A stretch of DNA of 40,078 bases from a virus. Its lineage: Duplodnaviria > Heunggongvirae > Uroviricota > Caudoviricetes. The notes under the pieces were generated by a model. It searched no databases. It saw only the letters and a program-made list of their open reading frames with translations, and had not been told where the DNA came from. The translations under genes and the position numbers were made by a program. Positions 1 through 17,878 of this stretch are shown here, piece by piece (the first letter of the stretch is position 1; every line of letters begins with the position of its first letter). Location: IMG/VR virus record IMGVR_UViG_2671181094_000008, positions 1-40,078 of that record; one strand, written 5' to 3'.

Positions 1-297
1 TTCGGTGAACGCACTATGGCGACGCTGGGGCGTCTTATGAGCCTGCTGTCACCCTTTGACGTGGTGATATGGATGACGGATGGCTGGCCGCTGTATGAAT
101 CCCGCCTGAAGGGAAAGCTGCACGTAATCAGCAAGCGATATACGCAGCGAATTGAGCGGCATAACCTGAATCTGAGGCAGCACCTGGCACGGCTGGGACG
201 GAAGTCGCTGTCGTTCTCAAAATCGGTGGAGCTGCATGACAAAGTCATCGGGCATTATCTGAACATAAAACACTATCAATAAGTTGGAGTCATTACC
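1..297 (+). mobile_element. IS1 right-end fragment, truncated by the window edge
   Basis: Encodes the InsB C-terminus ending ...HYLNIKHYQ and ends with the IS1 terminal inverted repeat AAGTTGGAGTCATTACC at 281..297. Whether the element is complete upstream cannot be seen. Confidence 0.85.
16..282 (+). CDS. insB: IS1 transposase InsB, C-terminal fragment (partial)
   Basis: The 88-aa translation matches my recollection of the IS1 InsB C-terminus; the ORF begins at the window edge region, so it is partial. Confidence 0.8.
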
Positions 298-315
298 GGG
301 CCATAGTTATTTCCA

Positions 316-346
316 TAAAAAAACCCGCACTAGGCGGGTTTTCTTA
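316..346. terminator. Bidirectional rho-independent terminator
   Basis: A-run, then 6-bp GC-rich stem ACCCGC/GCGGGT (323..339) with 5-nt loop, then TTTTCTT. It sits just 3' of the minus-strand acyltransferase gene. Confidence 0.6.
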
Positions 347-364
347 AACTGGTTAAAATATAGA

Positions 365-1423
365 TTAGGTTGTCACTTGCTTCGATTTTACGCTGAAAAA
401 ATTCTTTCTGAATCTTTCAGATGGATTTTCAACAATAAAATACATCGCTATACCAAATGCTATCACAAAACAAAATGATAGCATTGAAATCAACATTGAT
501 GAACTCTCTCTTGGTATAACCCAAAATACATAATTATATAGATAAATTGAAAAAGAACACTTACCAACAAATGAAAGCAATCTCACTACTATCGTAGGGT
601 TAACATTACCCTTGCCTCCAACAACAAACGACCACATAGAAATTGCCGCAAAAGTAGAAGCAACTATTTCATAAAGTTTAACATTGTTATTAAATCCATC
701 ACCCTTATAGAAAAGCATAACAACTAAAGCGACAATGGAAGATATCCTTATTGCTTTTAATTTACGAAAGCTTAAGCCACAGTCGGATGAGACAAACAAA
801 ACCCAACCCAAAACAAAAAGATAAAGGTAGGATATTATTGACCACGTCAACACCCTATCCACGGTTATAAGATTAATAACGATGGAAGATACAGCGCAAA
901 TCGCAAGCAATATAATTCTATTGCGATCTGTTTTGCAAATCAAAACAAAAATTGGCAACAACAAATAAAACTGCATTTCTACAGCTAACGACCAATAAAC
1001 ACCGCTAATGCTAAACATTGTACTTTCATTTAAGTTATGTATGAATGTCATGTGAGTTAAAATGTCATATATTCCAGTTGGCTTTTCTGCCACTCCATAA
1101 CATCTTATCAATACTATCCAAAACAAAATAGAAATGTAGTACGGAATCGCAATCCGTAGAAAACGCTTTGAGAAATAAAGAAAATAACTTGACTGTGAAA
1201 CACCATTTGAAAACATGTTTCTTGTTGACATTCCCATGCAGTACCCGGAAATAACGAAGAAAATCCCAACCCCTATCCATCCATTCCCAAATGGACCATA
1301 AAGGTCAAAATAGTTACCCAATGGCAGCCCACCAGAAGAAGACCAGAGGAAAATGTGGAACGATGTCACCAATAGAACAGCGACTCCTCTGAATGCATCT
1401 ATGATGTAGTTTCTTGTTTTCAT
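365..1423 (-). CDS. Acyltransferase family 3 membrane protein (OafA/Oac-like, candidate O-antigen acetyltransferase)
   Basis: 352-aa polytopic membrane protein with N-terminus MKTRNYIIDAFRGVAVLLV...FHIF typical of acyltransferase_3. Markedly AT-rich compared with the phage backbone, and placed beyond the tail genes as a moron. Confidence 0.75.
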   Translation of the reverse strand: MKTRNYIIDAFRGVAVLLVTSFHIFLWSSSGGLPLGNYFDLYGPFGNGWIGVGIFFVISGYCMGMSTRNMFSNGVSQSSYFLYFSKRFLRIAIPYYISILFWIVLIRCYGVAEKPTGIYDILTHMTFIHNLNESTMFSISGVYWSLAVEMQFYLLLPIFVLICKTDRNRIILLAICAVSSIVINLITVDRVLTWSIISYLYLFVLGWVLFVSSDCGLSFRKLKAIRISSIVALVVMLFYKGDGFNNNVKLYEIVASTFAAISMWSFVVGGKGNVNPTIVVRLLSFVGKCSFSIYLYNYVFWVIPRESSSMLISMLSFCFVIAFGIAMYFIVENPSERFRKNFFSVKSKQVTT

Positions 1424-1475
1424 ATGGAATTACCCAATTTTAGATCATTGGATTATACCACATAAGTAGAATTTA

Positions 1476-1988
1476 TCACCACCCAACAGCTACATAACTA
1501 AAATTATCCACGTTGCCTGATGATCCTGAGATCCATCCAAAAACATCAAACCCATTCAGGGTATGATTAGCTGACGACACATATCTATTCGTATCGGTAA
1601 TTTTTGACGGTATTACTGCAAGTACATTATTGGTAAAAGGTTTAGGGAAACTAACAGTACCAGACGATGCATTTATTACTGACTTTCCTGCTTGAATGGT
1701 AATCACCACATCGTTAAAAATATCTTTTACTGTAAAGCAAATCCCCAATGGGTTACTTTCCACCGTCACATTATTGCCAAGGAATCTTTTAATCGCTTTA
1801 AAAACTTGATTGTCATCCTCCGGGTTAAGCTCCATCCCTGAACCTTCCACCACGCCAATTAACTCGCGTTGGAAAGTGTTCAACATCTCGGCATTGATAA
1901 TAGTCGGTGAAATCCCATTAGCAACATTGCCATTAGTATATTCACCATTAGCATCAGCAGTATCTGTAGTGCTTCCAACTTTTCTCAT
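1476..1988 (-). CDS. Putative short tail-fibre / receptor-binding protein
   Basis: Lies directly downstream of the gp48-like gene where Mu-type tails place the fibre. The segment EMLNTFQRELIGVVEGSGMELNPEDDNQVFKAIKRF resembles a motif I recall in enterobacterial tail fibres. Only 170 aa and lower GC. Confidence 0.45.
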   Translation of the reverse strand: MRKVGSTTDTADANGEYTNGNVANGISPTIINAEMLNTFQRELIGVVEGSGMELNPEDDNQVFKAIKRFLGNNVTVESNPLGICFTVKDIFNDVVITIQAGKSVINASSGTVSFPKPFTNNVLAVIPSKITDTNRYVSSANHTLNGFDVFGWISGSSGNVDNFSYVAVGW

Positions 1989-2004
1989 GATTAACCTTTA
2001 AATG

Positions 2005-2688
2005 TTAGTTTCCTGAAATGTATCCAGAGGCGATATCAAAAATAGTTGCAAACTCAGGGGTAACTTCATACACCCCTTCGTCATTAAACCCAAAATAGAT
2101 ATAACCGAATTTTACAAGCGTATAGGATGGAGACAGCGCTGAAATGCGACACTCTAGTTGCCTGTTTCCCCATGAACGTAATGGGTCTCCGCAATAACTT
2201 ATCCCGACTCGGGAGTATGTTATATTCGTTTCCTCTCCTTCAACCATCCAGACAAATGGCCAGTCATCACCATTTAACCCATCACCACAAACTGATAATC
2301 CCGCTCGCGCCTGTCGGTATTCTTTAATTGAGATGGTATAACCCATTGCGGCAGCAATACTGATGAAATAGCTTTTTGACTGACCGCCGGTGCTTATTAA
2401 TTTTGAGACGATTGCATTTTGTCGCTTGGCGATTGTGTCGACCTCGCCAATGGAGCAATCATCAGGTAATCCGAGCGTATTTTCCCAGTCAGTAAGCATG
2501 ATGGTCGCTGTCTTCGGGAAAGCGCCACTAAGAAGAGCCTGAGCGTCATTATCACTACGTTGAAAACTCCTTGCCAGCGCTCGAAGCACTGCCGTCTGCA
2601 CTGCATTTTTATCTCGTGTCCAGGCTCTTCCTGACGGGATTAGTGCCTGTAGCGCTTTAAGGTAGTCGTCAGTTGAGAAGAGGCTCAT
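2005..2688 (-). CDS. Phage tail protein, Mu gp48-like (DUF2313 type)
   Basis: Position after the baseplate J gene and N-terminus MSLFSTDDYLKALQALIP...; start overlaps the upstream gene's stop. Confidence 0.55.
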   Translation of the reverse strand: MSLFSTDDYLKALQALIPSGRAWTRDKNAVQTAVLRALARSFQRSDNDAQALLSGAFPKTATIMLTDWENTLGLPDDCSIGEVDTIAKRQNAIVSKLISTGGQSKSYFISIAAAMGYTISIKEYRQARAGLSVCGDGLNGDDWPFVWMVEGEETNITYSRVGISYCGDPLRSWGNRQLECRISALSPSYTLVKFGYIYFGFNDEGVYEVTPEFATIFDIASGYISGN

Positions 2689-3833
2689 GTATAGTTCACC
2701 TCGCCACGAACGGCCATCTCCCCTATTCCCGGCTCAATATTTGCAGATGGGGAGACCAGAATAAAACCAGCCGTGCCTGAAACGTCCCCTATCGCACGGT
2801 TGAGGTCTGAAAGATAGATTTTTCCTGTTCCGAGAGGATCAGCAGATTCAAACAAAACACTGTCAATAGCGTCAGCTATAGCAGCAGTTGTCGTGCTACT
2901 CGCATCAGAGATACCGCTTATCTCAAAATCAATAACCAGCTCAGTAGGCGAACAGATGTAATTCAGGGAAGTCACAGGGGCAAGTGGGTACATATAATCG
3001 GCTACCCTTCCCTGATCGCCCGTGGCCTTTACTGCACCCCATTCTTCCAGTTGTGATACGCCATCCGTGCCAACCGGGAACCCATGGTTTGTCTTGTCGT
3101 TTCCATCACACATGATGTAAATCACAACGGTACCGGGACCCATTCCTCTACGGCGGACCCATGCACGTGTAACACCGGATACGGCCAGAGCCCATGTACG
3201 ATAATCCGTATCGCTCCCTCCTTGTGGTGGATTCTGGAACGCCAGCAGCCCCCGCTGTCGAAAATCTTCTTCATTTTCGATGTCGGCGCCGCCGGTAGCC
3301 GGTTCAATTAACGTAACCGAGCTGTCAATACCCGGCACGTTGGCATCCAGTGTCAGGAGCGTTCCGGCATCGGCATTTCCCCGGCTGCCACCGCCAGTGA
3401 TATCCTCTGAGATATCTGGTAGTCTGGCCGTCACCGCAACAGTAGCGCTGCCCGTGGAATCAATCATTACACTGGCGTCCGTGCTGTACTGGTAGCCATC
3501 CGCACGGTTAATTACAGAGCCCCTGGCTAAAACCCGCCCCGGTGTTCCGGTAATTTGCGCTGCCGGTGAGCGAGCCGCGGTCGCCGCTTTACGGTAGATC
3601 TGCTTCAACGCCATCCATCCGGCAAGCCATTCATCGGTTGATGTGAACGGCGTGCTCTGTCTGGCGATATAATCCAGATAGGCATAATGCAGGTGCGCCA
3701 TACCCGCGTCCATGTCGGCAAGCACTTTCAGATTACCGAATCGTAGCAGCGCGCCAACGTTCTCCAGCTCTGCCTGCATGAACTGGCGGTTCTCGTCACG
3801 GAGCTCACTCAGTGTTTTCCGTTTAAATGGCAT
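2685..3833 (-). CDS. Baseplate J-like protein (Mu gp47 / P2 gpJ family)
   Basis: 382 aa; gene order and size fit a Mu-like baseplate wedge protein. Confidence 0.7.
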   Translation of the reverse strand: MPFKRKTLSELRDENRQFMQAELENVGALLRFGNLKVLADMDAGMAHLHYAYLDYIARQSTPFTSTDEWLAGWMALKQIYRKAATAARSPAAQITGTPGRVLARGSVINRADGYQYSTDASVMIDSTGSATVAVTARLPDISEDITGGGSRGNADAGTLLTLDANVPGIDSSVTLIEPATGGADIENEEDFRQRGLLAFQNPPQGGSDTDYRTWALAVSGVTRAWVRRRGMGPGTVVIYIMCDGNDKTNHGFPVGTDGVSQLEEWGAVKATGDQGRVADYMYPLAPVTSLNYICSPTELVIDFEISGISDASSTTTAAIADAIDSVLFESADPLGTGKIYLSDLNRAIGDVSGTAGFILVSPSANIEPGIGEMAVRGEVNYT

Positions 3834-4272
3834 TATTCAGTTGCTCCCATAGCCAGAAGAATTTGAACTCCTGCCAGTCCCCTGCCGGCGGCAAATACCG
3901 GATGATCAGATTCAACCTGTCAGGGAAGACGATTTCCGATTGCGCCTGTATCTCTGCCACAATGCCATCCGATTTCATCCAGGCCAGCGCCTCTTCGGCA
4001 TAATCTTCCGCTCTCATCGCCACTTCGCGAGTCAGCTTTTCACGTCGCAGTAGCCACAGCCTTGAGCCAATATTCCGATCGTTGTCCAGATCACCCCACC
4101 AGCCGCGGCGGTCGGTTCCTTCATAATTGTCGTCAGCGCGCGCCAGCCCGTCGGTAAACAGGCTGATAATCACTGCCGTGTACATGTCATTTTCTGAGGT
4201 TAAGATGCCGTTTCCGGCCTGCCAGTCTGCGTGAAGGGCATCAACATTCCAGAAAGAGGAAATATCACTCAT
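3823..4272 (-). CDS. Phage GP46-like baseplate protein
   Basis: 149 aa, between the spike and J-like genes, overlapping its neighbours. Confidence 0.55.
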   Translation of the reverse strand: MSDISSFWNVDALHADWQAGNGILTSENDMYTAVIISLFTDGLARADDNYEGTDRRGWWGDLDNDRNIGSRLWLLRREKLTREVAMRAEDYAEEALAWMKSDGIVAEIQAQSEIVFPDRLNLIIRYLPPAGDWQEFKFFWLWEQLNNAI

Positions 4273-4850
4273 ACCTGACTCTCTGTTTTTTCGCTGGTTA
4301 TGGTGCTGTCACCGGACTGAACTTTTTTAACGTCATGGTCATGTTCATTGTGAGCATCACGCAGTTCTTTGAGCGTTTTATCGTTCGTCTCACAGTTATC
4401 GATGACGTCTCCGGTCACCAGAAGTCTGGGGGTAACCAGCTTTACCTGCTCCGTTGCCGTCGCAGTGATGTTTGCAGCATTGCTGATCTCTACATCCTTA
4501 CCTTTGGCATCAATGAAAATGCCCGACTCGGTCAGATGGATATTCAGCCCCCACTGGTTGTAGACTACCGTTTCCCCTGGTTTCAGCCCGGTATGTCGAT
4601 AGCCCTGATGGTTAGAGGCGATGACGACGGGGCTGGAACGATCACCTCCCAGAAATGCAATAACCACATCAGCACCTGCCGGTAGCCCCGATGAAAAGCC
4701 AAAATCAGAAAACCGCGGCGCGCTGGCCACTTCCAGCGGGGTCTGATACTGCACTTCCTGTACCACCCCGCTATCTTTCTGGCTGGTAATACGACCAATG
4801 CCCAGCATGCCCGCGATGCGGGTCGCCGCTTTTCTTAAATTTTGAATCAT
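4269..4850 (-). CDS. Baseplate assembly protein V / spike (Mu gp45-like)
   Basis: 193 aa, in the conserved position between hub and gp46. Confidence 0.6.
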   Translation of the reverse strand: MIQNLRKAATRIAGMLGIGRITSQKDSGVVQEVQYQTPLEVASAPRFSDFGFSSGLPAGADVVIAFLGGDRSSPVVIASNHQGYRHTGLKPGETVVYNQWGLNIHLTESGIFIDAKGKDVEISNAANITATATEQVKLVTPRLLVTGDVIDNCETNDKTLKELRDAHNEHDHDVKKVQSGDSTITSEKTESQV

Positions 4851-5932
4851 TGGTTTAATCCCGGGATTTGCTGATAGAAGGCACAGGGCTGGACGCTGAA
4901 GGCTTCCGGCGGTAGCAGGTACATTCTGGCGTGAGTGCCGTCGCTGTCTCTGATGTAGGTCACCTCAGCAATCAGCATTTCCGTATCCGGAAGTTGCATT
5001 GAGGGGATATTTACCGGGATCAGCGTGTTCGGCTCCCAGAGTTTTCCCGCTTTATCGCGCCAGGAATCAATCGTGACGCTCAATGGCTTTGAGCGGCCGT
5101 ATCGTCGGTTCATCTCCCAGTCGATGGCGCGCTGCGCCTGCTGGGATGCCATCAGCGTACTTTCAACGATAATGATCCGTTTCCGGTAGCGCATGCTTGC
5201 CGCCTCCGGATCACGCGCTGTCGCCAGCGTCACCGAGTCATAAGCTGTATCCGGTGAGAATCCTGCAATCGGAGAAATGCTCATCGATACGCCGACGTAA
5301 TCAGAAAAGCGGTCTGCCATCGAACGGCGGTAATAAGCCTGTTCGATATTTACCCCTTCAGCGATACCGCTGGACGCGCGCTTTGCGCCCACCCGGGTAA
5401 GAAATAAATTGCCGTCAGGCTGATCGTAATAGAGCAGAGCTGACCAGCGGGAGACCCGTTCAAGTATTTCCTGCGGCGACTCCCCCCAGTTGAGCGTGAA
5501 CTGGGGAACGCTGACTAAATCATCGATATCAGTAGAAACCGTAATGTCGTAATACGATGCAAGCCTGGATGCTATATCCAGCGCATTGCCGCCGTTGATA
5601 ACGTTGTTCGGCCATTCTGCCGAGCAATCGACAAGATCACAGCACTTATTGCGCCCCGTTGCCCTGACTTCATGGCGAGACCGGGAAAGTGATGGTGACC
5701 AGTCGTCTACATAGCCTGTTATAACCAGATCGCTGCCTAGTTTTACCTGGCAGGGCATCCCCTCCTTCACCAGCTGTTTCTGATCACTACCGGGAAAATA
5801 ATCCATCAGACCCAGATCAAAATCGGAGGGGAAACGCTCAATGCCGCGGGTCACCCGCACAGAATCCCACCCCTCAATAACTTTCCCGCCCACAGTCAGA
5901 GAGACGATATCCTGATCGTTATCCGTACTCAT
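4847..5932 (-). CDS. Baseplate hub protein (Mu P / P2 gpD late-control-D family)
   Basis: 361 aa, directly downstream of the DNA-circularisation gene. Confidence 0.6.
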   Translation of the reverse strand: MSTDNDQDIVSLTVGGKVIEGWDSVRVTRGIERFPSDFDLGLMDYFPGSDQKQLVKEGMPCQVKLGSDLVITGYVDDWSPSLSRSRHEVRATGRNKCCDLVDCSAEWPNNVINGGNALDIASRLASYYDITVSTDIDDLVSVPQFTLNWGESPQEILERVSRWSALLYYDQPDGNLFLTRVGAKRASSGIAEGVNIEQAYYRRSMADRFSDYVGVSMSISPIAGFSPDTAYDSVTLATARDPEAASMRYRKRIIIVESTLMASQQAQRAIDWEMNRRYGRSKPLSVTIDSWRDKAGKLWEPNTLIPVNIPSMQLPDTEMLIAEVTYIRDSDGTHARMYLLPPEAFSVQPCAFYQQIPGLNQ

Positions 5933-7329
5933 TGTCTCAACACCTTCATCGTCGTCGGCATAAACGCCGGATGCGGCACACTGGCTTCCTGTATCAGTTC
6001 ATTTGCCCGTAAGGCATCCTGATACAGACGGTTAGCCATAACCAGTGCAGGAATGGGCAGCGTGGTATTAACCTGCATCAGATCACTCAGCCCGGCTGAA
6101 ATCTGGGACATGGTGTCCAGGAAGGCGCTTCTCACTGTCATCAGCGCGCTATAGAGATCGTCATCCGCCCGGTCGCCCGCCAGAAGTAACGCTGCATCCA
6201 GCTGCGTGGCCACGCGTTGCGTGATTTCCTCGGTCTCATTACGACTGGTAGGGTTGTAATCGGCCGCCGCATTCGTCATCGCCCCGCTGCACAGCACAAT
6301 GATGAGCGTATTCATTGTGCCAGCCAGTTGCTGGCTACTTTCGGATCGCTGGTATTCGGTACTGGTTGATGCCGCCAGTTTTTCAAACGCAGCAATTTTA
6401 TCGCTCACGCTGCCGGCGCTGGTCAGAATGCGATTAATAACATCGGCAACGCCCTGAACAAATTCATCAGCAGATACCGATTCATTCAGTGCAGCGGTCG
6501 TATCAAGTACAGCCTGTCGGTCCATCACGGCCTGTGCGGAAACTAGTTCAGATAAAGCCTGATAGTCTTCTGTATCGTCAGCATCACGATTTCCGTTAAT
6601 ACCCGAAGAACTCCCGCCAACCGTCCCTTTGCTGTACCGACCGTACCGGTTGTTCCCGAAGGTGGAATTCAGCACGTTACTGACGTTCGTCACCTCACTG
6701 ATGGTGTTGTCCACCATATTGGTCCAGAACGTCACGGTTCCCTTTATGGTCTTAATCCCCTGGCTCACGCCGCGGATCTCACTTTTGATTCTCGCCAGGG
6801 TACTGGCAACCGCCGTGCTGACCAACTTCAGATAGTTGGTGCCGACGGTGTCACCCGCGGCGGTGCTGTCTGTAATGGCGAAGACCTTTAACCCCGACTC
6901 AATCACCATCAGGGTAAACTCAAACGAACGACCATTATCGGCGGAGCCGGAGAGTCTTAACCCGTTCTCAGGTATGGAAACGGTCATTTCCCCCAGCGTG
7001 GGGTGAATGAGCGTACCGCTCCCCTTAGCTTCACACGCATTAATCAACGCCTGTCGCTGGGAAATGACATCCCCGCCACCGTAGACCAGACTGTTCTGGA
7101 CGATAAAACCACGGATAATAAATCGCCGCGTCCCTCGCCCCATGTCCTCAATCCAGGCGGTATCACGGTATGGATATTCGTGGACGGCCTGCCGGCGACC
7201 ATGGCTGCCTTCCTCATTAACCACAGCAAAGGGCACGCCACGGAAGGAGCCTGGCCGTAATTGACCCAGCCAGTCCTCACTACCGCCTCCGCCCATCAGG
7301 GAAGTTATTGCATCCTGAATAATTGCCAT
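5929..7329 (-). CDS. DNA circularisation protein (Mu N / gp43-like)
   Basis: 466 aa with N-terminus MAIIQDAITSLMGGGG...GVPFAVVNEEGSHGRR typical of the family; sits between tape measure and hub. Confidence 0.65.
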   Translation of the reverse strand: MAIIQDAITSLMGGGGSEDWLGQLRPGSFRGVPFAVVNEEGSHGRRQAVHEYPYRDTAWIEDMGRGTRRFIIRGFIVQNSLVYGGGDVISQRQALINACEAKGSGTLIHPTLGEMTVSIPENGLRLSGSADNGRSFEFTLMVIESGLKVFAITDSTAAGDTVGTNYLKLVSTAVASTLARIKSEIRGVSQGIKTIKGTVTFWTNMVDNTISEVTNVSNVLNSTFGNNRYGRYSKGTVGGSSSGINGNRDADDTEDYQALSELVSAQAVMDRQAVLDTTAALNESVSADEFVQGVADVINRILTSAGSVSDKIAAFEKLAASTSTEYQRSESSQQLAGTMNTLIIVLCSGAMTNAAADYNPTSRNETEEITQRVATQLDAALLLAGDRADDDLYSALMTVRSAFLDTMSQISAGLSDLMQVNTTLPIPALVMANRLYQDALRANELIQEASVPHPAFMPTTMKVLRQ

Positions 7330-7342
7330 CGGGCCTCCGGAA

Positions 7343-7367
7343 TAAAAAAACCGCCAGGGCGGCGGTT
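7343..7367 (-). terminator. Intrinsic terminator-like hairpin inside the late tail operon
   Basis: On the minus strand the stem ACCGCC/GGCGGT is followed by TTTTTTTATT; located between the tape-measure stop and the next gene's start. Confidence 0.45.
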
Positions 7368-7375
7368 TAAACGGG

Positions 7376-9229
7376 TTAGTAATTCATGGCGGTTGTTATT
7401 CTGCCATTATCCTCAACGTTATAGGTTTTCTTCTCCCCCTTATCATTGACCAGGGTGATTTCCAGCTTCATTTTCTGATCGGCCATCGCCTCTTTGAGAG
7501 ACCGGGTCAGGTTTTCACTGGCTGCCTCTCTCCCGTTGCCGGAGGCTGTCAGGATAGAAGAGCTGTCAAACGTATCAGGCTGAGGCGCGAGGATATTCTG
7601 TCTCTGCTGGCTGAGTACACTACTATCACGAAGACCTGACCAACGCGGGTCACTGATGGCCGTTTGAATTGCAGCCTGTATCTCATCTTCAGAATATGGC
7701 TGCGCGCCATTCTCATGCTGAATCATGGCTGCCATGACAGATTTCAGTACTTCCGGGTTATGCAGATCCATCCGCTGCTGGGGCTGAAATCCCGTCGCGG
7801 CTGAGACTGAATTGATATAGGACTGAGTGTCATTTTCTGACCGCGGCGCATAGGTGTGGATCATGCTGTTCAGCGTGTTATTCCCACGATCGCCATATAA
7901 CATCAGCTGCCTGGCCATTGCCGCCAACCCGTCGTTGCTATTGTCATAAGTGACGAAACCACGATTCACCCCGGTCGCATTAGGCGCTATCCGGAGATTG
8001 CCCGGGTTATTATTTCTGAGGCCCAGCGCCTGGTTAGATGGCTGGCTGTAATTCACCTCCCCGCGTGGAGCTGCTGCACCTGCTGGCAGGATAACAGACA
8101 AATCATTACGGAGTTGTTCAGCTCTGTCACTGGCGCCATATTGCGCGTCGTAGCGTTTCCGGACGGCATCCGTCATAAAGCCGGCATCTACCGCCCCGCG
8201 CTCACGCCGGGAAAGGGTGTTATACAGCGCTTTATCACCCTGAATGCGGCGTAGCTTCCCGGCATCCTTGCTACTGATAAACCCCAGCGCATGCGACAGC
8301 CCGGTGAAATCGCCATTCGTGAACAAGTCGGTCACACCTTCGAGACCGTCTTTCACCGAACCATCGGAAAGCAATCCCTTAAACAGAGAGTTTTTCGAAC
8401 GTTTTTTCAGCCCATCCCATGCTGCGCCCAGCTCATTCATGGTGCCGTTAACCTCGGACAATTGCCGGTTAAGTTCCAGATCAACCGTCAGGCCAAGTTC
8501 ATCAGATTTAGCCAGCAATGCTTTCATCCGTACGCCTTCACGCATCAGCGCCAGCATTTCCGGCGTCAATCCGAGGGCATCGGAAACCGACTTCTGCTGG
8601 TCAGGACGCAGGCTCGGGAAAACGCGCGCTATCGACTCCAGCGTTCTCAGCGTATCAACGGAGCCGTCATTGTTTTTCTGGATCTGAACGCCAATCTGCG
8701 ACAATGCGCCAAGCACCTGGCTGTTGGCACCGCTGGCGGCCTCCTTCAGGCTTTTAGCCATCCCCTCGATGGAAGCGTTGGCACTGTCACCATCAGCCCC
8801 CAGTATCCGCATGGCGCCGGACAGTCTGGAAAAATCCTCCACCCGCATACCCGCATTTTTCGCGGCAACATCGAGGTTATAGGCTTCCCTTGAGGCCTCA
8901 TGGAAACCGTAGGCAATCTGTTTTAACCCGTATCCCGCCGCCCCGACCACGCCCAGCGACGCCAGCTTACCGGAGAGCTCACCGACCATCTTCAGCGGCG
9001 GCACCATATCCCCGATATACTGCACGTTATCACGGGCATTTTTGGACAGATTTTCGAAGCGGGAGATAAAGCCGTTCAGGCCATCGAGGGTCTCCTGTCC
9101 TCCTAACTGGAGTCCCTCTTTGGTTTTATCCAGCTTTGGCTCCAGATCACGGATAGCCTCATTGATACGCTCAATGGCTTCCGTCGCCTGATCGCTGGCC
9201 ACCAGCTCAAAGTCGAAAGAATTACTCAT
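7376..9229 (-). CDS. Tail tape measure protein
   Basis: 617-aa protein placed between the chaperone pair and the DNA-circularisation gene. Confidence 0.65.
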   Translation of the reverse strand: MSNSFDFELVASDQATEAIERINEAIRDLEPKLDKTKEGLQLGGQETLDGLNGFISRFENLSKNARDNVQYIGDMVPPLKMVGELSGKLASLGVVGAAGYGLKQIAYGFHEASREAYNLDVAAKNAGMRVEDFSRLSGAMRILGADGDSANASIEGMAKSLKEAASGANSQVLGALSQIGVQIQKNNDGSVDTLRTLESIARVFPSLRPDQQKSVSDALGLTPEMLALMREGVRMKALLAKSDELGLTVDLELNRQLSEVNGTMNELGAAWDGLKKRSKNSLFKGLLSDGSVKDGLEGVTDLFTNGDFTGLSHALGFISSKDAGKLRRIQGDKALYNTLSRRERGAVDAGFMTDAVRKRYDAQYGASDRAEQLRNDLSVILPAGAAAPRGEVNYSQPSNQALGLRNNNPGNLRIAPNATGVNRGFVTYDNSNDGLAAMARQLMLYGDRGNNTLNSMIHTYAPRSENDTQSYINSVSAATGFQPQQRMDLHNPEVLKSVMAAMIQHENGAQPYSEDEIQAAIQTAISDPRWSGLRDSSVLSQQRQNILAPQPDTFDSSSILTASGNGREAASENLTRSLKEAMADQKMKLEITLVNDKGEKKTYNVEDNGRITTAMNY

Positions 9230-9413
9230 CGGGTTTGGTATTCCTGAGTTTATTGATACGGGTGGCCTGCGATACCCACCACTTCAGACGGGCATAGGTC
9301 ATGCCCCACGCCCTGTCTTCTGTCCAGCGGAAATAAAATGTGACGTCAGCGGCCGTTTCCTGCCAGGCGGTCAGGGCTTCCAGGTCAAAAAACCGAGCAA
9401 AAACTCCTCGCAT
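9222..9413 (-). CDS. Tail assembly chaperone, -1 frameshift extension (gpE'/GT-like)
   Basis: Overlaps the 3' end of the upstream chaperone ORF in the -1 frame; slippery heptamer TTTTTTG (minus strand, plus coordinates 9386..9392) lies in the overlap. Confidence 0.55.
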   Translation of the reverse strand: MRGVFARFFDLEALTAWQETAADVTFYFRWTEDRAWGMTYARLKWWVSQATRINKLRNTKPDE

Positions 9414-9649
9414 TTTCGGAAGTCGATAAAATCCATCGGCTGAAGCACACTTTCCCGCGTATCCGTGACCAGCGAGATCAGCAGACGCATTGCCGCCAGA
9501 GAAGTGGACGATGTCTGCTTTTCGTAGAACTGCTCTGCCTGGCTGAGCGTCGGTGCCTTCAGCTCCAGTTGCTCATAGCGCGTTTTTTGCGCCTCATCGA
9601 CAAGAGGCTTGATGAGAGGAATGACTTTGGTGCGTTCAAGTTCTGCCAT
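9371..9649 (-). CDS. Tail assembly chaperone (gpE/G-like)
   Basis: 92-aa ORF between tube and tape measure genes, containing the slippery site near its 3' end. Confidence 0.6.
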   Translation of the reverse strand: MAELERTKVIPLIKPLVDEAQKTRYEQLELKAPTLSQAEQFYEKQTSSTSLAAMRLLISLVTDTRESVLQPMDFIDFRKCEEFLLGFLTWKP

Positions 9650-9650
9650 C

Positions 9651-10022
9651 TTAGTTCTCCGTTACGTCCCGACCTTCCCAGCGAACATCAAACACTGCGT
9701 CTTCGCTTTCCACCTCCTGAACGTTAACCGTCCAGAGTGCGCGACCGATAATAGTCTTTCCGTTCGCCAGCTCGGCGATCACGTTGACGTTCGTCTGACC
9801 GTTAAACCCCAGCACGTTAGTCCCGCCACTGTCACGCAGACGGGCTGAAATATACGGGGCAACCGGTTTTTCTTTATAACCATGTACTCCGTCCATGCCT
9901 GTCAGCGTGGTGCGATTGACAGTAGCTGACTGGTATTTAAACGAACCCTCCACCATCACAGTCACCCCATTGACGGTGACATAAGCGGTACCCGCCAGGC
10001 GGTTAGTGGTATCTCCTGCCAT
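9651..10022 (-). CDS. Contractile tail tube protein
   Basis: 123 aa, immediately downstream of the sheath gene. Confidence 0.7.
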   Translation of the reverse strand: MAGDTTNRLAGTAYVTVNGVTVMVEGSFKYQSATVNRTTLTGMDGVHGYKEKPVAPYISARLRDSGGTNVLGFNGQTNVNVIAELANGKTIIGRALWTVNVQEVESEDAVFDVRWEGRDVTEN

Positions 10023-10025
10023 GAT

Positions 10026-11537
10026 TTATGCTCCTGTTGACTCAGCCTGCAGGCGGAACTGATTAAGCAACGCGAAGATGCGCAACTGGTTCATAAGCGT
10101 TCCCGGCCACAGTACGTCAACGCGGTTCGGGTTCGTTTTGTTCTGCTCAACAATAATGTTTCTGGCAAAGGCCTCTTCGTCCTGCGCATAGCCGTTAAAG
10201 ACCAGCGTCTGGTATTCCGCAATCTGATCGGCCCTGATGATGTTAGGTGTCACAATCGCCGCCCCCGGCGCAAAACGCGTGCCGTCCGCGGCCAGCTTCA
10301 TGCGACCAAATTTACTGGTGACTGCAGTGCGGAGATATCGCGTGACAAACATCAGGCTGAACAGCGTTTCCACCTGCAGGTAACTGTCGTCTTCGTCGCC
10401 ATAGCTGTTTTTCTGGTAGGTGGTAATCAGGTTTTCAATCATCACCGTCCCGTCATCACCTACGGTGTAAGTGGAGATGCCGCTGTACAGCAGGTTGTTG
10501 CGCTCTGTCAGCTCAAAGCGATCCGCCAGATCCGGCGCCAGCACGCCATAAACAGGCAGACTTTGTAGCGGGCGTCCGGGGTCGTTACGCAGGCTGGGTG
10601 CGGCGGCCCCAGTCAGTGCCGCCGCCCAGATATAACGCGGTGACGGTGAGCGATACACGCCAAGCAGTGACTCATGCTGGTTATTACGGGTTTCCCCTTT
10701 GGTGCCAAGCTCAGCGTAAGTGCCGTTGGTGGTAGTGAAAGCGTGGCCATAAAGCTGTTTATCCCATGCCCAGCGGCCGGTTGCATCGTTCAGAAATTCT
10801 CTGATGGCATCCAGTGATGCGGTGTCATCATAAGGGTTGATGACAAAATCAAAGGTCTTATCCTGCAGGTTGCCCAGGGCATCAACAAAATCCGGCGCAC
10901 CGGCGCCGCCGGCCATGCCCGTGATGGTCAGCGTCAGTCCTGCGGGCGTCACCTCACCACCCTGAACACCGAGATAATTCAGCCTGATATCAATACCATT
11001 GCCCAGTAACCCGGCATTCTTGGCCGTCAGTGTCAAGGTATCTGTGGCATCGGCTTTTACAGCAGCGGTCACCGGCAGTTCCGTTTTACGGGTAATCGCC
11101 GCGACCAGCGCAGTGGCAATCTGAGCCGGAGTGTCAGTCGCCAGTACGGTCAGTTGTACGCGAACACCAGCAATATAAAGAGAGATAACGCCGGTTTCTG
11201 TCGCCTGTGTGGCAACCTTGATACTGCCTGTTGCCACTGCCATCGAATCCGCATCATCAGCCAGCGGAAGGATCCAGACCTCCGCAGCAGTATCGTTTTT
11301 TTGATACGCCGTCATCATGCCATGTAGCATTGAGCCTTTTCCGGTAAGCTCACCCACCGCATTGGGAGAAGAGACTTTTACCGGGATTTTTTCCTGTGCA
11401 GAGCCCGATGCCAGCATCTGACCAATCAGCAGCGTTCGCTGTGTAGCGGTCGCCGTGTTGGCCATGGAGTTATCAAACTCCACATAAAAAAGCGGCACAC
11501 GTAAATTGCCGGGAACTCGCGAAAATGGAACGGTCAT
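10026..11537 (-). CDS. Contractile tail sheath protein
   Basis: 503 aa, in the canonical sheath-tube-chaperone-tape measure order. Confidence 0.8.
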   Translation of the reverse strand: MTVPFSRVPGNLRVPLFYVEFDNSMANTATATQRTLLIGQMLASGSAQEKIPVKVSSPNAVGELTGKGSMLHGMMTAYQKNDTAAEVWILPLADDADSMAVATGSIKVATQATETGVISLYIAGVRVQLTVLATDTPAQIATALVAAITRKTELPVTAAVKADATDTLTLTAKNAGLLGNGIDIRLNYLGVQGGEVTPAGLTLTITGMAGGAGAPDFVDALGNLQDKTFDFVINPYDDTASLDAIREFLNDATGRWAWDKQLYGHAFTTTNGTYAELGTKGETRNNQHESLLGVYRSPSPRYIWAAALTGAAAPSLRNDPGRPLQSLPVYGVLAPDLADRFELTERNNLLYSGISTYTVGDDGTVMIENLITTYQKNSYGDEDDSYLQVETLFSLMFVTRYLRTAVTSKFGRMKLAADGTRFAPGAAIVTPNIIRADQIAEYQTLVFNGYAQDEEAFARNIIVEQNKTNPNRVDVLWPGTLMNQLRIFALLNQFRLQAESTGA

Positions 11538-11719
11538 TTAGTTACGCCCTCTTTTTTTACGGCGTTTTTAACGCCCTTTTCCGGTACCAGGCTGACGTCA
11601 CCATCCTTCAGGCGGCGGTGCCAGAACGTATTATCAGGTACCTCCGCGCCATCTTTGGGCAAAGGCTCCCCCCTGACAGGGCAGCGAACGCTGAGCCCGT
11701 CCTTCGGTTTTACAAACAT
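11534..11719 (-). CDS. Small phage protein (DUF2635-like) preceding the sheath gene
   Basis: 61-aa ORF whose stop overlaps the sheath start; a small gene is commonly found here in Mu-like tail clusters. Confidence 0.4.
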   Translation of the reverse strand: MFVKPKDGLSVRCPVRGEPLPKDGAEVPDNTFWHRRLKDGDVSLVPEKGVKNAVKKEGVTK

Positions 11720-11721
11720 GA

Positions 11722-12267
11722 TTACTCCTGAAGGTCTATTTTTACGCCCGGCTGCGGCGTACCGTCCGGCATGTTAATGGTGATGTCGATCCCCGCCAGC
11801 GGTACCGTATCGACCGGATAAAAGTCTTCCGGTCCCTGATAGTGCTCAATATCAATTTCGATAAGCAGCTGGCCCATATGCGCTTCGCCATCCGCATCAA
11901 CATCAATCGTCGAGCGAACCTCCGCATATTTCTGGATGTTCCGGGTCAACTCGTAGCTGTTAATCACCGCCCTTTCTACCTGTTCCCGGAGCTCCTCCAG
12001 TGCAACCTCCGCGCGCATGGCGCCATCATCAGTGGTTTCACTGTCATACTCCTGAACCCGGCCGGTAATACGAACGGTGGTCAGAGAGGTGAAGGCCGGG
12101 GTATTTCGCCCCTGCGCCTTTTTGTGATCAAATGGCGTCTGAACAAGCAATGCAGGGTACAAGTCCGGCGAAGTTGCCCAGTCACGCGGGGAATACACAC
12201 GATCGCTGGCGGCGGTTTTATCTTTCAGCGCGGCCACGACCATTTGTCGTATTGCGGAAGCATTCAT
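11722..12267 (-). CDS. Tail completion / virion morphogenesis protein
   Basis: 181 aa, between head-completion genes and the sheath; overlaps the upstream gene. Confidence 0.45.
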   Translation of the reverse strand: MNASAIRQMVVAALKDKTAASDRVYSPRDWATSPDLYPALLVQTPFDHKKAQGRNTPAFTSLTTVRITGRVQEYDSETTDDGAMRAEVALEELREQVERAVINSYELTRNIQKYAEVRSTIDVDADGEAHMGQLLIEIDIEHYQGPEDFYPVDTVPLAGIDITINMPDGTPQPGVKIDLQE

Positions 12268-12623
12268 CGGGTTTTCGCCACATTGAGAACGAGACGCGAG
12301 CCGCCATGGCTGTCCGGTTCGACGTTGGACACAACAAATAACTGATTGATGACCTGACCCCCGACCGTTTTAATAAACACACGGTCAGATACGGCAGGCT
12401 GCGGTTTACCCAATTGACGAAATTCAGCATCACGCACACCCAGCATCGGGCTGGAGGTGTTAATTTCTGATTCACCATCAAGATTTTCTGCAATCTGCGC
12501 ATAGCCACGGTCAAAAATACCGTTAATCGTAAAAGGAGTACCGTTGCGGGGACGGTACTCATGCTCATCGCCAAACACGCCATGGAGCGGACTCAGAAGA
12601 TGTAAATCCCAGTCCACGCCCAT
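12264..12623 (-). CDS. Head-tail connector / head completion protein
   Basis: 119 aa, positioned at the head-to-tail module junction. Confidence 0.4.
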   Translation of the reverse strand: MGVDWDLHLLSPLHGVFGDEHEYRPRNGTPFTINGIFDRGYAQIAENLDGESEINTSSPMLGVRDAEFRQLGKPQPAVSDRVFIKTVGGQVINQLFVVSNVEPDSHGGSRLVLNVAKTR

Positions 12624-12627
12624 CTGC

Positions 12628-13008
12628 TTACTCCGTTGTGATTTTCACACCACGCACAGCAGATAATGCACGCTGTCGCAGAGCATGGACATCGGCAATT
12701 ACACCTGCTGCCAGCAGACGCTCGGCATCCTTACCGGAGACCGGAATAAGGGAGTTTTCCCGATAGACCTCACCGTCATGGCGGATGCAATTCCCTTTCA
12801 GCACCACAAACTCAGGCTCCGGGGCATCTTCCTGGTCATCTTCTTCAGCGGTATCCTCATCATCTGATGGTTCGCCGTGTTTATCGTCATGCTGTTGGGT
12901 CTCATGAACGCTGCCACCAGCATTCAGGTCGTCGATATTCAGGGCGTCTTCGGTGGCGCCTTCCGCATTCAGATCATCGCCCAGTACAGTTTTGGTTGTT
13001 TTAGCCAT
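12628..13008 (-). CDS. Acidic head-associated protein of unknown function
   Basis: Start MAKTTKTV... chosen just after the capsid stop (the ORF track's longer start at 13038 would overlap the capsid gene); D/E-rich centre. Confidence 0.35.
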   Translation of the reverse strand: MAKTTKTVLGDDLNAEGATEDALNIDDLNAGGSVHETQQHDDKHGEPSDDEDTAEEDDQEDAPEPEFVVLKGNCIRHDGEVYRENSLIPVSGKDAERLLAAGVIADVHALRQRALSAVRGVKITTE

Positions 13009-13009
13009 A

Positions 13010-14059
13010 TCAGACCACCGTTGCACAAAGGGATGCATTTACCCGGCTCGGAATAACCAGCGGAGAGGATTGCATCAGGATAAGACGCTGGGCCGGATCT
13101 TCTTTCACCCAGGATTTTGGCGCATAGGCCAGGGGACCGTAGTTAAATGCCGGGTCCAGGATAACGCCAAAAGCGCGGGTACCCATCAGATCAGCGCCAG
13201 ACATAATAACAGCGCCGTCGGGGATCATCGGCTTCTCGACATTATCAAGTGGGTCAATAAACCAGTCGTTATATAACCAGAGGTCAAAGTTACCCCAGCG
13301 TCCTTTATAAATAGCGCCCTTCATCGCCTGTGGGCCAGCGTTAATCTGGTTACCAAACGGGCTCAGCGCCGGGAACGTGATGGCGTTATCTTTGATGGTG
13401 GTGTCCAGTCGGAAAGCACGCCATGACTTGCTTGTGAACACCAGATCCGTCGCGACGGAACCGGATTCTTTCAGGAAAAGCGTCTGCCAGATTTCAATAT
13501 CATCAGAGGGCTGGGTATTAGTGGCACCCGCGGCAACCGTCAGCGGCCACTTATCTGAACCACTCAGAGTGATAGTCAAATCCGGAGAGCGCCCGAAATC
13601 CACTACTTTGGTTTCATAGCCTTCCCCGGCAACCGTGACGGTACCGGACACCAGCGCGCTGGCCGCCATCCACTCAAGACGACGGTTGATCATGTCAATC
13701 TGATCGGTCATCTCAAACTGCAGGTTCAACATTTCGCGTTCTGCGGCGGTATATTCACCGCCAATACGCTCACCAATCTGGCGACGAATCGGTTTACGCA
13801 GATCCGGCGCGCGCTTATCTTTGATATAAGCTGGTTTGAACGTATTGGTCTGGTATTTACGGGACTCGACCAGCTTACCTTCCACCAGCGGGGAGACGAA
13901 TGGCGCCATACGACGCAGGCCGACATCCACGTCAATCGCCACTTCTTCAGTCTCATAAGTCACGACGTTCGGGAAGAAGCGATCAAGCAGCCAGTTCTGA
14001 CTGGTTTTCAGGTTAGGAACGACCTGTACCAGCACACTGGTATCATAAATATTTTCCAT
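13010..14059 (-). CDS. Major capsid protein (lambda gpE family)
   Basis: 349 aa with N-terminus MENIYDTSVLVQVVPNLKTSQNWLLDRFFP typical of the E family; follows a decoration gene. Confidence 0.85.
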   Translation of the reverse strand: MENIYDTSVLVQVVPNLKTSQNWLLDRFFPNVVTYETEEVAIDVDVGLRRMAPFVSPLVEGKLVESRKYQTNTFKPAYIKDKRAPDLRKPIRRQIGERIGGEYTAAEREMLNLQFEMTDQIDMINRRLEWMAASALVSGTVTVAGEGYETKVVDFGRSPDLTITLSGSDKWPLTVAAGATNTQPSDDIEIWQTLFLKESGSVATDLVFTSKSWRAFRLDTTIKDNAITFPALSPFGNQINAGPQAMKGAIYKGRWGNFDLWLYNDWFIDPLDNVEKPMIPDGAVIMSGADLMGTRAFGVILDPAFNYGPLAYAPKSWVKEDPAQRLILMQSSPLVIPSRVNASLCATVV

Positions 14060-14075
14060 ATTCAGTCTCTTGATA

Positions 14076-14096
14076 ATGCCAGCCGCACGCTGGCAT
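14076..14096 (-). other. Perfect 8-bp stem-loop between decoration and capsid genes
   Basis: ATGCCAGC-CGCAC-GCTGGCAT; no U-run follows on the transcribed strand, so more likely an mRNA structure than a terminator. Confidence 0.35.
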
Positions 14097-14157
14097 AAAT
14101 TTTAAATGGGTCAACGCCTGCCGGTTAAAGCATTCGCCAGGAGAAATGAGGGATAAA

Positions 14158-14565
14158 TCAGGAGGTGGTTAAAGGTGCCTGGGCGCTGTCTTTCAGGAAG
14201 ATGGCCAGCGGGCGTAGTGCTGTTTTCAGTTCCGACGCAGTCCAGGAAGTGTCAAAAATAATATGATTCTGGTTGAACTCCCCCATCAGATACAGGCCGC
14301 CGGACTGATCGCCATGAGTGGAAGCGTCAACATCATCAACCAGAATGGCCGCCGGCGTCTCGCTACCATCCGTTGCGGTTTTCACACTGACGGTGTATTT
14401 ACCACTGGCGGTGATCATGCCAAGCACAGTGCCACGCTTATACACACCGCCGGTGATAGTGCCGGTATCCGTGACCAGTTGCAGCGTACCGGCAATTAAC
14501 TGATCCGGCACAAACGCTGAACTCTTCATGCCAGGTGCAAAGGCATTCTGACCAAATTGATCCAT
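14158..14565 (-). CDS. Head decoration protein (lambda gpD family)
   Basis: 135 aa, N-terminus MDQFGQNAFAPG...; lies between scaffold and capsid genes. Confidence 0.8.
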   Translation of the reverse strand: MDQFGQNAFAPGMKSSAFVPDQLIAGTLQLVTDTGTITGGVYKRGTVLGMITASGKYTVSVKTATDGSETPAAILVDDVDASTHGDQSGGLYLMGEFNQNHIIFDTSWTASELKTALRPLAIFLKDSAQAPLTTS

Positions 14566-15152
14566 TATTTCTCTCCTTTAATGGAGTTGTAGAGGCCGGT
14601 CATCTGGTTTACCAGTGCCGATTTACCGCTCTCTTTCTTGCCACTATCCGGATTCAGACGGGCCTGATGGCTGGCCTGCATCCGCTGGTCAAGTGAACGC
14701 TTGCGGGTTGTGGCTGGCTGCGAAACTGGCGCGGTTGAAGCCAGAACATTGATGGCGGCAGCTGAGCTCATGCCGGTATTGAATGCCAGCGACGCGGCCA
14801 GTGAAGGATTCGCCGCAGCGTGCTTACTGCCGAAGATACGGGCACAACGTTTACGCTCGGCGGCGCGGGCATTTTTCACCGCTTTGCTTTCTTTGCGGTC
14901 ATCGTCGCCATCATCTTCGGAATCGTCATCGTCTTCCGCCGCATCCGGGTCGTCACCGTCATCTTCAGCGTCATCATCACGCTCGTCGTCTTCCGCGTCA
15001 TCTTCGCGTTCATCGTCCTCGGCATCATCTTCGCGCTCATCCTCTTCCGCGCGACGGCCTTTCGCTTTTTTGGCCTTTTTGTCTTCTTCCTCTTCGGAAG
15101 CAGTCGCGCCACGGCCAATAAGATGAGCAAAACTAAATGTTTTCTTCGCCAT
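14565..15152 (-). CDS. Putative head scaffolding protein with acidic tandem repeat
   Basis: Start MAKKTF chosen 2 nt after the protease stop; contains the periodic acidic repeat EDDEREDDAEDDEREDDAEDDERDDDAEDDGDD; in the lambda Nu3 position. Confidence 0.5.
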   Translation of the reverse strand: MAKKTFSFAHLIGRGATASEEEEDKKAKKAKGRRAEEDEREDDAEDDEREDDAEDDERDDDAEDDGDDPDAAEDDDDSEDDGDDDRKESKAVKNARAAERKRCARIFGSKHAAANPSLAASLAFNTGMSSAAAINVLASTAPVSQPATTRKRSLDQRMQASHQARLNPDSGKKESGKSALVNQMTGLYNSIKGEK

Positions 15153-15153
15153 T

Positions 15154-16020
15154 TCAGGCTCCTGTTTTTTCAAGTAAGTTTCTGAACGCAGCATCAGGAG
15201 GACACACCTCATCAGCCAGTCCAAGTTCCACACCATCAGCAGCCATAAAACAGGCAGCCTGAGTACTTTTGATAACCTTTGCGCTAATCCCCCGATTTCT
15301 GGCGACGGTATTCACAAACAATTCGCCCATGGTGTTGATGTCCTGCTGAATAGCCGCCAGCGCTTCATCTGACAGTTCTCTCAGCGGTGACCCCTCAGCC
15401 TTACGGGAACCGTAGGTGATGATGGTGACTTTGAGGCCGTCATCTTTTATCCGCTGGGTCCAGTCAAGGTGCATAGTGATCACACCAACTGAACCAACAC
15501 CACCGGTTCGGGGAACAGAAATCCGGTCCGCCGCACTGGCAATCGCATAGGCGGCGGAATAGGCGCTTTCCGTCAGAATGGCATGGATGGGCTTTTTCCC
15601 CCGGGCGCCATAAATGACATCGACCAGATCGAAACATCCGGCGACCTCGCCACCGGGCGAATCAATATCCAGGCAGATCCCCGTAATATCGGGGTCTTCC
15701 ATCGCAGTCAGGAAGGCCTGACGAATGCCGTCATAGCCTGTCATGCCACTGTATGGACGCAGGCTGCCCAGCTTCTGCACCAGGGTCCCACATATCGGGA
15801 TGACAGCGACGCCCAGCACATTGTCATAACCCGGGTCGCTACGGGATTCCCGCCCCCGGTTATCGTCGTATCCATACCAGTCATCATCCATGGCAAGAGA
15901 GGATTCGATTTTACTGATGCCAAACCGGTCCATAACGGATGCCATGATGACTTCAGCTTTACTTGGGTGCAGCGCCAGCGGTGTATTAAAAAGGCGCTGG
16001 GCCAGATGAGGTAGATTCAC
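15154..16020 (-). CDS. Head maturation protease (S49 / ClpP-like, lambda gpC family)
   Basis: 288 aa, between portal and scaffold genes. Confidence 0.75.
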   Translation of the reverse strand: MNLPHLAQRLFNTPLALHPSKAEVIMASVMDRFGISKIESSLAMDDDWYGYDDNRGRESRSDPGYDNVLGVAVIPICGTLVQKLGSLRPYSGMTGYDGIRQAFLTAMEDPDITGICLDIDSPGGEVAGCFDLVDVIYGARGKKPIHAILTESAYSAAYAIASAADRISVPRTGGVGSVGVITMHLDWTQRIKDDGLKVTIITYGSRKAEGSPLRELSDEALAAIQQDINTMGELFVNTVARNRGISAKVIKSTQAACFMAADGVELGLADEVCPPDAAFRNLLEKTGA

Positions 16021-17651: not shown

Positions 17652-17878
17652 CAGAATCTGAACCTCACTGGCTTCCGTGGCCGGGCGACAATTCCCAGTT
17701 GCGCCTGCAGCAACTGAATCAGCGCCAGCAGGTCGGCAAGAGAGCTTTGCTGATAGGAGACAGAGCGCGTCCCATCACCCTGCGTATAGGAGAATGAGAC
17801 GCCACGGCTGCCTGTAGTCAGGTCGATATAAGCCTGCTGCGCTTTCTGCAGAGCGTCTCTGAGCTGCTCATCAGTCAT
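17651..17878 (-). CDS. Head-tail joining protein gpW-like
   Basis: Short protein between terminase and portal genes with lambda W-like character; start MTDEQLRDAL chosen over the longer ORF-track start. Confidence 0.7.
   Translation of the reverse strand: MTDEQLRDALQKAQQAYIDLTTGSRGVSFSYTQGDGTRSVSYQQSSLADLLALIQLLQAQLGIVARPRKPVRFRF

Follow-up and report, generated by a model that had tools for sequence, protein, structure and literature searches.

A probable programmed -1 frameshift of the P2 E/E+E' type in the gene for the tail assembly chaperone of a prophage with a Mu-like tail

The DNA analysed here (the window) is a stretch of 40,078 nucleotides (nt), positions 1 to 40,078 of IMG/VR virus record IMGVR_UViG_2671181094_000008 (Caudoviricetes). 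On its minus strand lies a gene for a tail assembly chaperone, and the 3' end of its 92-amino acid (aa) open reading frame (ORF) is overlapped by a 63-aa ORF in the -1 frame. The overlap contains the slippery heptamer T_TTT_TTG, where the two ORFs may be joined by a programmed -1 ribosomal frameshift. The features at the locus are the following.

9649..9371, minus strand: tail assembly chaperone ORF (gpE-like), zero frame, 92 aa; TGA stop at 9373..9371
9413..9222, minus strand: overlapping ORF, -1 frame, 63 aa
9413..9411, minus strand: ATG opening the 63-aa ORF, -1 frame; fortuitous, a start that is not conserved
9409..9404, minus strand: Shine-Dalgarno (SD)-like GAGGAG, 11 nt 5' of the heptamer, with its RAGG core at 9409..9406, 13 nt 5'; putative stimulator
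9392..9386, minus strand: slippery heptamer T_TTT_TTG, read directly; codons ggT TTT TTG, which are Gly86 Phe87 Leu88
9386..9225 plus TAA at 9224..9222, minus strand: -1-frame extension (gpE'-like), 54 codons
complement(join(9222..9386, 9386..9649)), minus strand: putative fusion coding sequence, 88 + 54 = 142 aa
9229..9222, minus strand: octamer ATGAGTAA, an 8-nt overlap holding the ATG of the tape measure gene (9229..9227) and the stop of the extension (9224..9222)

The final codons of the chaperone ORF are ...TGC GAG GAG TTT TTG CTC GGT TTT TTG ACC TGG AAG CCC TGA. In the phase of this ORF the TTTTTTG at 9392..9386 is divided as ggT TTT TTG and is a true X_XXY_YYZ site. An earlier sequence-only reading had placed an in-frame T_TTT_TTG at 9386..9392 of the minus strand, and direct reading of the sequence confirms it. 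The same reading had put the heptamer eleven codons before the stop, which is wrong: just four sense codons (ACC TGG AAG CCC) stand between the TTG and the TGA. Eleven codons back from the end of the ORF, counting the stop, lies a non-canonical G_TTT_TTG (9404..9398), 12 nt upstream of the heptamer. Starting at G9386, the -1 frame gives GAC CTG GAA... (DLEALTAWQ...) and stays open for 54 codons to the TAA at 9224..9222. The resulting 142 aa bear out the earlier estimate of a fusion of roughly 140 aa. The 61 long ORFs of the window (approximately 12,800 codons) contain 44 in-frame XXXYYYZ motifs, and the rarity of the heptamer was therefore rejected as an argument. The sole in-frame T6G in the window ORFs is the chaperone site, which lies within the last five codons of its gene, and the extension ends exactly on the start of the next gene.

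The 92-aa product matches Pfam PF10109 (Phage_TAC_7) with an E value of 4.8e-7 and 30.2 bits (cut-off 25), residues 11-88 aligning with positions 3-78 of the 79 in the profile. Pfam describes this family as 'Phage tail assembly chaperone proteins, E, or 41 or 14'. The product also matches PHROG 166 'tail protein' (E 1.5e-25), and its relatives are named 'phage tail assembly protein' by NCBI.

Conservation was examined in 129 loci, comprising the window, 19 loci from species-representative genomes, 80 loci from IMG/VR (the top 80) and 29 from two divergent clades that were reached by querying with divergent members. An alignment-based rescan of viral contigs gave the identical top 80 loci. The genomes named include Escherichia, Klebsiella, Salmonella, Citrobacter, Kluyvera, Edwardsiella, Brenneria, Yersinia, Xenorhabdus, a Serratia phage and one assembly labelled Martelella. 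The 129 loci reduce to 88 unique chaperone ORFs with 45-100% aa identity. In all 88 the heptamer is present and in phase, as T_TTT_TTG in 80 and as T_TTT_TTA in eight, and the slippery site thus proved conserved in every homologue. The codon that precedes the TTT of the heptamer is AGT, GGT, TCT, CAT or GCT (Ser, Gly, His or Ala) and ends in T in all 88, while T occupies just 22% of third positions elsewhere in these ORFs. The Phe of the heptamer is TTT in 88/88, as compared with 53% of Phe codons elsewhere. The silent positions T0 and T3 are invariant and adjacent third positions have an entropy of 0.9-1.5. The zero-frame stop varies in position and is found 4, 10, 11, 12 or 14 codons downstream of the heptamer. 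The invariance of T0 and T3 beside a wandering stop therefore indicates that selection acts on the heptamer nucleotides themselves, and by these counts the invariance of the motif in 88 unique ORFs is beyond what chance explains.

Three of the IMG/VR contigs (L036, L037 and L038) carry two tandem canonical heptamers, GAT TTT TTG CTC GGT TTT TTG, each of which leads into the same -1 frame. The extra heptamer is approximately 12 nt upstream of the main one. Its equivalent in the window (9398..9404) is the non-canonical G_TTT_TTG, which overlaps the last base of the SD-like GAGGAG.

The sequence downstream of the heptamer has the properties of a protein read in the -1 frame. Among 55 unique ungapped sequences, entropy in the body of the chaperone peaks at zero-frame third positions (1.05 vs 0.31 and 0.19). 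Past the zero-frame stop the peak shifts to the third positions of the -1 frame (0.79 vs 0.17 and 0.35). By this codon periodicity the extension evolves under purifying selection in the -1 frame. It is 48-55 aa long in all loci except two, matches PHROG 10636 (E 2e-19) and contains a conserved motif, AADVT.Y..W...AW....L.WW..QA.RI, which is kept down to 45% identity.

The two exceptions are both from Xenorhabdus and both retain T6G. In X. vietnamensis (L018) the extension is cut by a premature TAG after five codons, and in X. hominickii (L015) it diverges halfway, near the end of a contig. X. vietnamensis has at least three copies of the tail module. These two loci may be decaying or truncated copies, in decaying prophages or tailocin-like remnants.

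The same arrangement is known from the FETUD tail operon of phage P2, for which we drew on the GenBank record and on PMC3091744. The record gives gpE with 91 aa and gpE+E' with 142 aa ('-1 frameshift'), annotates the shift site, and labels both E products 'essential tail protein'; the corresponding lengths in the window are 92 and 142 aa. The published description places the shift at TTTTTTG, giving the 91- and 142-aa proteins, with a site that is conserved in P2-like Burkholderia phages and without a downstream hairpin (PMC3091744). The P2 DNA reads GTC GGT TTT TTG TCG... and ...ACG AATGAGTAA, and the window has the same GGT TTT TTG (Gly-Phe-Leu). The ATGAGTAA overlap is common to both as well: P2 E+E' ends at 19857 and T starts at 19850 (8 nt), and most relatives of the window locus are alike in this. 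A comparison with P2 E/E' had been proposed from the sequence alone, and the profile of the fusion does align with P2 gpE+E' across the junction. With 13 conceptual fusions, hhalign gives a probability of 93% and an E value of 3.4e-7 over 117 columns (residues 5-131 vs P2 2-135), with GFL aligned on GFL and the ADV..F.W motif of E' matched. In blastp the window fusion matches P2 E+E' with an E value of 5e-4, again spanning the junction. A PDB sequence search with the fusion profile returned just a chance-level match to PSRP-3 (E 0.008).

The locus shares with P2 the PF10109 family of the short product, the ADV..F.W...L..W motif of E', a contractile tail and the lack of a 3' RNA structure. It differs from P2 in several respects. 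Sequence identity is just 24-26% or so, and the zero-frame stop lies six codons past the site in P2 and four in the window. P2 has AAGGTGG 5-7 nt upstream, whereas the SD-like element of the window is 11-13 nt upstream. The tail neighbours in the window are Mu-like (DNA-circulation N-like, gpP-like and DUF2635, which is Mu gp38-like) rather than P2-like.

In phage lambda the gene for gpG/gpGT likewise lies between those for the major tail (tube) protein and the tape measure, and an abundant short chaperone is accompanied by a rare one with a C-terminal extension. The lambda G:GT ratio is fixed at approximately 30:1, G binds the tape measure and the T domain binds the tube subunit (PMC5009743). 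The lambda heptamer is G_GGA_AAG and the lambda tail is non-contractile, however, sequence similarity was neither sought nor found, and the likeness is one of mechanism and gene order, not a tested family membership. The neighbouring genes resemble those of Mu (sheath L, tube M, tape measure, N and P), and the description of PF10109 names '41'. In Mu, however, the shift at gp41/Mu_56 is a verified one of -2, into the +1 frame, and the short product has 144 aa; P2, not Mu, is therefore the true analogue. A Mu gp41-type -2 shift was considered for the window and rejected. The +1 frame past the site (CCT GGA AGC CCT GAC CGC CTG GCA GGA AAC GGC CGC TGA) stays open for just 12 codons, and it is the -1 frame that encodes the conserved extension. 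A further comparison is with E. coli dnaX, which the window resembles in having an SD-like sequence, conserved at the nucleotide level, at a stimulatory distance (9-14 nt; 11-13 nt in the window). The dnaX heptamer is A_AAA_AAG and is followed by a hairpin, unlike that of the window, and the dnaX shift shortens the product whereas the window shift would lengthen it.

Of the elements of a dnaX-type signal, then, the window has the SD-like sequence at 9-14 nt and has no 3' stem-loop. The RAGG core at -17..-14 is invariant. Among 64 unique ORFs, 61 have GAG at -17..-15 and three have AAG, and none has GAA or AAA, whereas in the remainder of these ORFs 49% of Glu codons are GAG and 39% of Lys codons are AAG. 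The following codon has G as its first base in every case, whether it encodes Glu, Val, Asp, Ala or Gly. The duplex of this element with the 3' end of 16S rRNA (the anti-SD sequence) has a predicted energy of -8.4 kcal/mol in the window. Over 90 unique loci the mean is -7.3 kcal/mol (-5.6 to -9.7), against a background of -0.9 +/- 1.7, and the element is the strongest internal anti-SD match in 51 of these loci. Internal SD sequences stimulate -1 shifts at 9-14 nt, as in dnaX (PMC5009743). We put at about even the chances that the RAGG 13 nt upstream tunes a weak U_UUU_UUR site as a dnaX-style stimulator, through pairing of rRNA and mRNA, and is conserved purely at the nucleotide level. If so, this pairing would set the ratio of short to long chaperone in a phage tail gene that has no 3' structure. 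No report of such an SD element for tail assembly chaperones was found in the literature searched. In bulk surveys, some prophage frameshift motifs were already seen to have a conserved SD sequence upstream (PMC4066793), and for this reason the upstream SD, even if functional, is not a new principle. Its conservation at the nucleotide level is the sole mildly new element at the locus.

From the features described we infer that the shift occurs and that it is ribosomal; its rate, the role of the SD-like sequence and the function of the proteins are stated here conditionally. Most ribosomes would translate the 92-aa chaperone and terminate at the TGA at 9373..9371. A minority would slip with tRNA-Phe (UUU) in the P site and tRNA-Leu (UUG) in the A site of U_UUU_UUG. 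Both tRNAs would re-pair one base back on UUU_UUU, and reading would resume at GAC in the -1 frame and continue for 54 further codons to the TAA that overlaps the start codon of the tape measure gene. The GAGGAG (RAGG) 11-13 nt upstream probably pairs with 16S rRNA during translation and increases the frequency of the shift in the manner of E. coli dnaX, and 3' RNA structure would take no part. The predicted product has 142 aa, with the N-terminus of the chaperone and an E'-like C-terminal domain, joined as ...EEFLLGFL/DLEALTAWQ... (the slash marks the junction). GFL/DLE is expected because Leu88 is decoded before the slip in two-tRNA slippage, and the tryptic peptide expected across the junction is CEEFLLGFLDLEALTAWQETAADVTFYFR. 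The sequence-only reading was right in carrying the -1 frame into the overlapping 63-aa ORF, although the junction that it gave (...FFDLE...) results from translating the -1 ORF as it stands and is not the one that two-tRNA slippage predicts. Lambda G/GT and P2 E/E+E' suggest by analogy that the short form would coat the tape measure protein and that the rare long form would link the tape-measure complex to the tail tube subunit via its extra domain. The fixed ratio of short to long form would be what matters, on the same analogy, and neither form is expected in the finished virion.

Other explanations of the overlapping frames have to be weighed against a ribosomal shift. The two frames could be joined by transcriptional slippage on the T6 run, with one U added to some transcripts, or by a slip of tRNA-Phe in the P site with the A site empty. 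Either route would give the junction GFF/DLE in place of GFL/DLE. The site is a homopolymer run, and in an assembly with T7 rather than T6 (database protein P0001, locus L185) chaperone and extension are indeed fused in frame. As the phase is fixed by homology, computation here does not separate a conserved T run from a conserved ribosomal heptamer. The shortness of the run nevertheless disfavours transcriptional slippage. Transcriptional realignment in bacteria is efficient mainly on runs of more than six bases. The restriction of the seventh base to G or A is a further point against it, as this keeps a Leu UUR codon whose tRNAs can re-pair on UUU. Slippage by RNA polymerase also leaves unexplained the conserved anti-SD-complementary element at the spacing of a ribosomal stimulator, and both annotation and literature treat the homologous P2 site as a translational frameshift. 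We regard this explanation as unlikely.

The remaining explanations dispense with any change of frame. The 63-aa ORF (9413..9222) might be an independent small gene translated from its own ATG, given that there is a -1-frame ATG at 9413 in the window and that phrog_10636 was built from such separately called fragments. However, that ATG is preceded by no SD, and 50 of 64 unique relatives lack any -1-frame ATG 5' of the heptamer. No ATG, GTG or TTG occurs between the upstream -1-frame stop and the heptamer in 36 of the 64. Thirty relatives have the -1 frame closed 15 nt 5' of the heptamer and five have a -1-frame TAG abutting it (CTT AGT TTT TTG), so that the frame opens no more than 15 nt before the heptamer in 35 relatives. 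The abutting TAG of those five confines the change of frame to 22 nt, from T0 to the zero-frame stop. It is at the heptamer that conservation of the peptide sets in, and the P2 E+E' alignment runs through the junction without a break. Because most relatives have no start codon and the -1 frame opens at or just before the heptamer, independent translation is not viable, and we hold a separate gene to be very unlikely. The overlap could also be fortuitous, the heptamer and the -1 frame being unused and the 141 nt from the chaperone stop to the tape measure start a non-coding spacer. Motifs of the form XXXYYYZ are common in frame (the 44 noted above), and annotators leave the 141-nt stretch empty. 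A spacer would not be expected to have a protein-like -1-frame codon periodicity, a peptide motif conserved to 45% identity, invariant silent sites in the heptamer and homology to P2 E', and chance overlap is accordingly considered extremely unlikely.

A number of observations weigh against a programmed ribosomal shift at this site. The loci are mutually related, and the counts given above are therefore of non-independent events. No 3' stimulatory structure was found: stretches around and downstream of the heptamer fold no more stably than shuffled sequences, with z-scores of +0.9 (46 nt), +1.0 (86 nt) and -1.0 (209 nt), and the alifold consensus of -3.8 kcal/mol (45 unique ungapped homologues) was equalled or beaten by 28 of 200 column shuffles. 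This lack agrees with the P2 report. Measurements in E. coli do not place U_UUU_UUG among the efficient -1 motifs (PMC4066793), for which reason the shift rate may be low and a stimulator would be useful. The SD-like motif lies within conserved Cys-Glu codons, so that part of its conservation is due to the protein, and P2 is without an SD at the equivalent spacing. Pfam and NCBIfam profiles gave no E'-family match at E values up to 10, for either the 54-aa extension alone or the fusion, and homology to P2 E' was therefore drawn from the pairwise and profile comparisons. GenBank and PGAP records of close relatives annotate the 92-aa product alone, with no extension. Among 5.8 billion clustered database proteins no correctly joined fusion was found, the relatives being 92-104-aa entries named 'phage tail assembly protein'.

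The DNA itself shows the site with its phase, an open -1 frame, the conservation of silent positions, purifying selection in the -1 frame, homology to P2 E+E' and synteny. With these set against the points above, we consider it highly probable that the locus is a programmed -1 frameshift of the P2 E/E+E' type in the chaperone gene of a prophage with a Mu-like tail. The earlier proposal that this is the conserved chaperone frameshift of long-tailed phages is thus supported, as one of the P2 type, by synteny, PF10109, silent-site conservation, the evolution of the -1 frame and the P2 alignment. The locus is of an ordinary, previously known kind, though unannotated.

The chaperone gene is flanked by the tail tube gene upstream and the tape measure gene downstream, all on the minus strand. 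The order on that strand is sheath, tube, chaperone, tape measure, Mu N-like (DNA_circ_N) and Mu P-like baseplate genes. The flanking genes are as follows.

11537..10026, minus strand: tail sheath, 503 aa; PF04984 and PF17482; phrog_165
10022..9651, minus strand: tail tube, 123 aa; Pfam PF10618 Tail_tube, E 3.5e-35; directly upstream of the chaperone gene
9229..7376, minus strand: tape measure, 617 aa; PHROG 2276 'tail length tape measure protein', E 4e-140; weak match to Pfam PF10145

The tape measure protein is the presumed client of the chaperone. Its residues 390-540 or so match endolysin and tail injection transglycosylase PHROGs (phrog_873, E 3e-42; phrog_7182, E 2e-14), which suggests that a peptidoglycan-degrading domain is embedded in it. 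A 61-aa ORF (11534..11719, minus strand) shares 4 nt with the start of the sheath gene and has the position of the DUF2635 gene (Mu gp38-like 'sheath terminator') that is annotated in phiNP, BZS1 and E. coli L37. The window is a mosaic. Its tail and head region is like that of phiNP- and BZS1-like phages only, with approximately 76% identity. The lysis and antitermination region (approximately 21500..25000), in contrast to 1..21000, has 87-93% identity to many lambdoid Klebsiella phages. Because of this mosaic with matches to lambdoid Klebsiella phages, the host is probably Klebsiella or a close relative.

The extension is missing from the annotation of all the close relatives that were inspected. 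In Citrobacter phage phiNP, Serratia phage BZS1 and E. coli L37 (PGAP) approximately 120-140 nt are left empty before the tape measure gene. A tblastn search of 50,697 phage records with the fusion found phiNP and BZS1 only, each in two pieces that correspond to the two frames. In E. coli L37 (L102, NZ_CP034589.1) the locus tags jump from EKM58_RS13965 to EKM58_RS13975, omitting RS13970 precisely where the unannotated 141 nt lie, as though a called feature had been removed.

One near-full-length match to the fusion exists in the database, the 134-aa P0001 of Raoultella ornithinolytica (GCA_901420735.1, L185:1758-1766), which shows that one extra T fuses both frames. It was rejected as a natural in-frame fusion: along with T7 for T6 its DNA has a second homopolymer indel, tggtgggggcgc, that truncates the C-terminus. 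P0001 is probably the product of a sequencing error of the long-read homopolymer kind, but it could be a natural in-frame mutant.

Among 5,426 complete E. coli genomes, 51 have a close relative of the region, and a single cluster of closely related Klebsiella proteins (97% identical) is found on approximately 700 contigs. The chaperone family is widespread in enterobacterial prophages. The current understanding of tail assembly is unchanged by these findings, and their main value is for annotation. Since the records list the 92-aa product alone and leave a 141-nt 'gap' before the tape measure gene, an essential-looking tail protein with a predicted length of 142 aa is missing from proteomes. 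The conserved upstream SD-like element offers an easily testable case of ratio tuning without RNA structure. A P2-type -1 chaperone signal would lie within an otherwise Mu-like tail module, where Mu itself uses -2, and this would represent module-level mosaicism in the recoding of one function.

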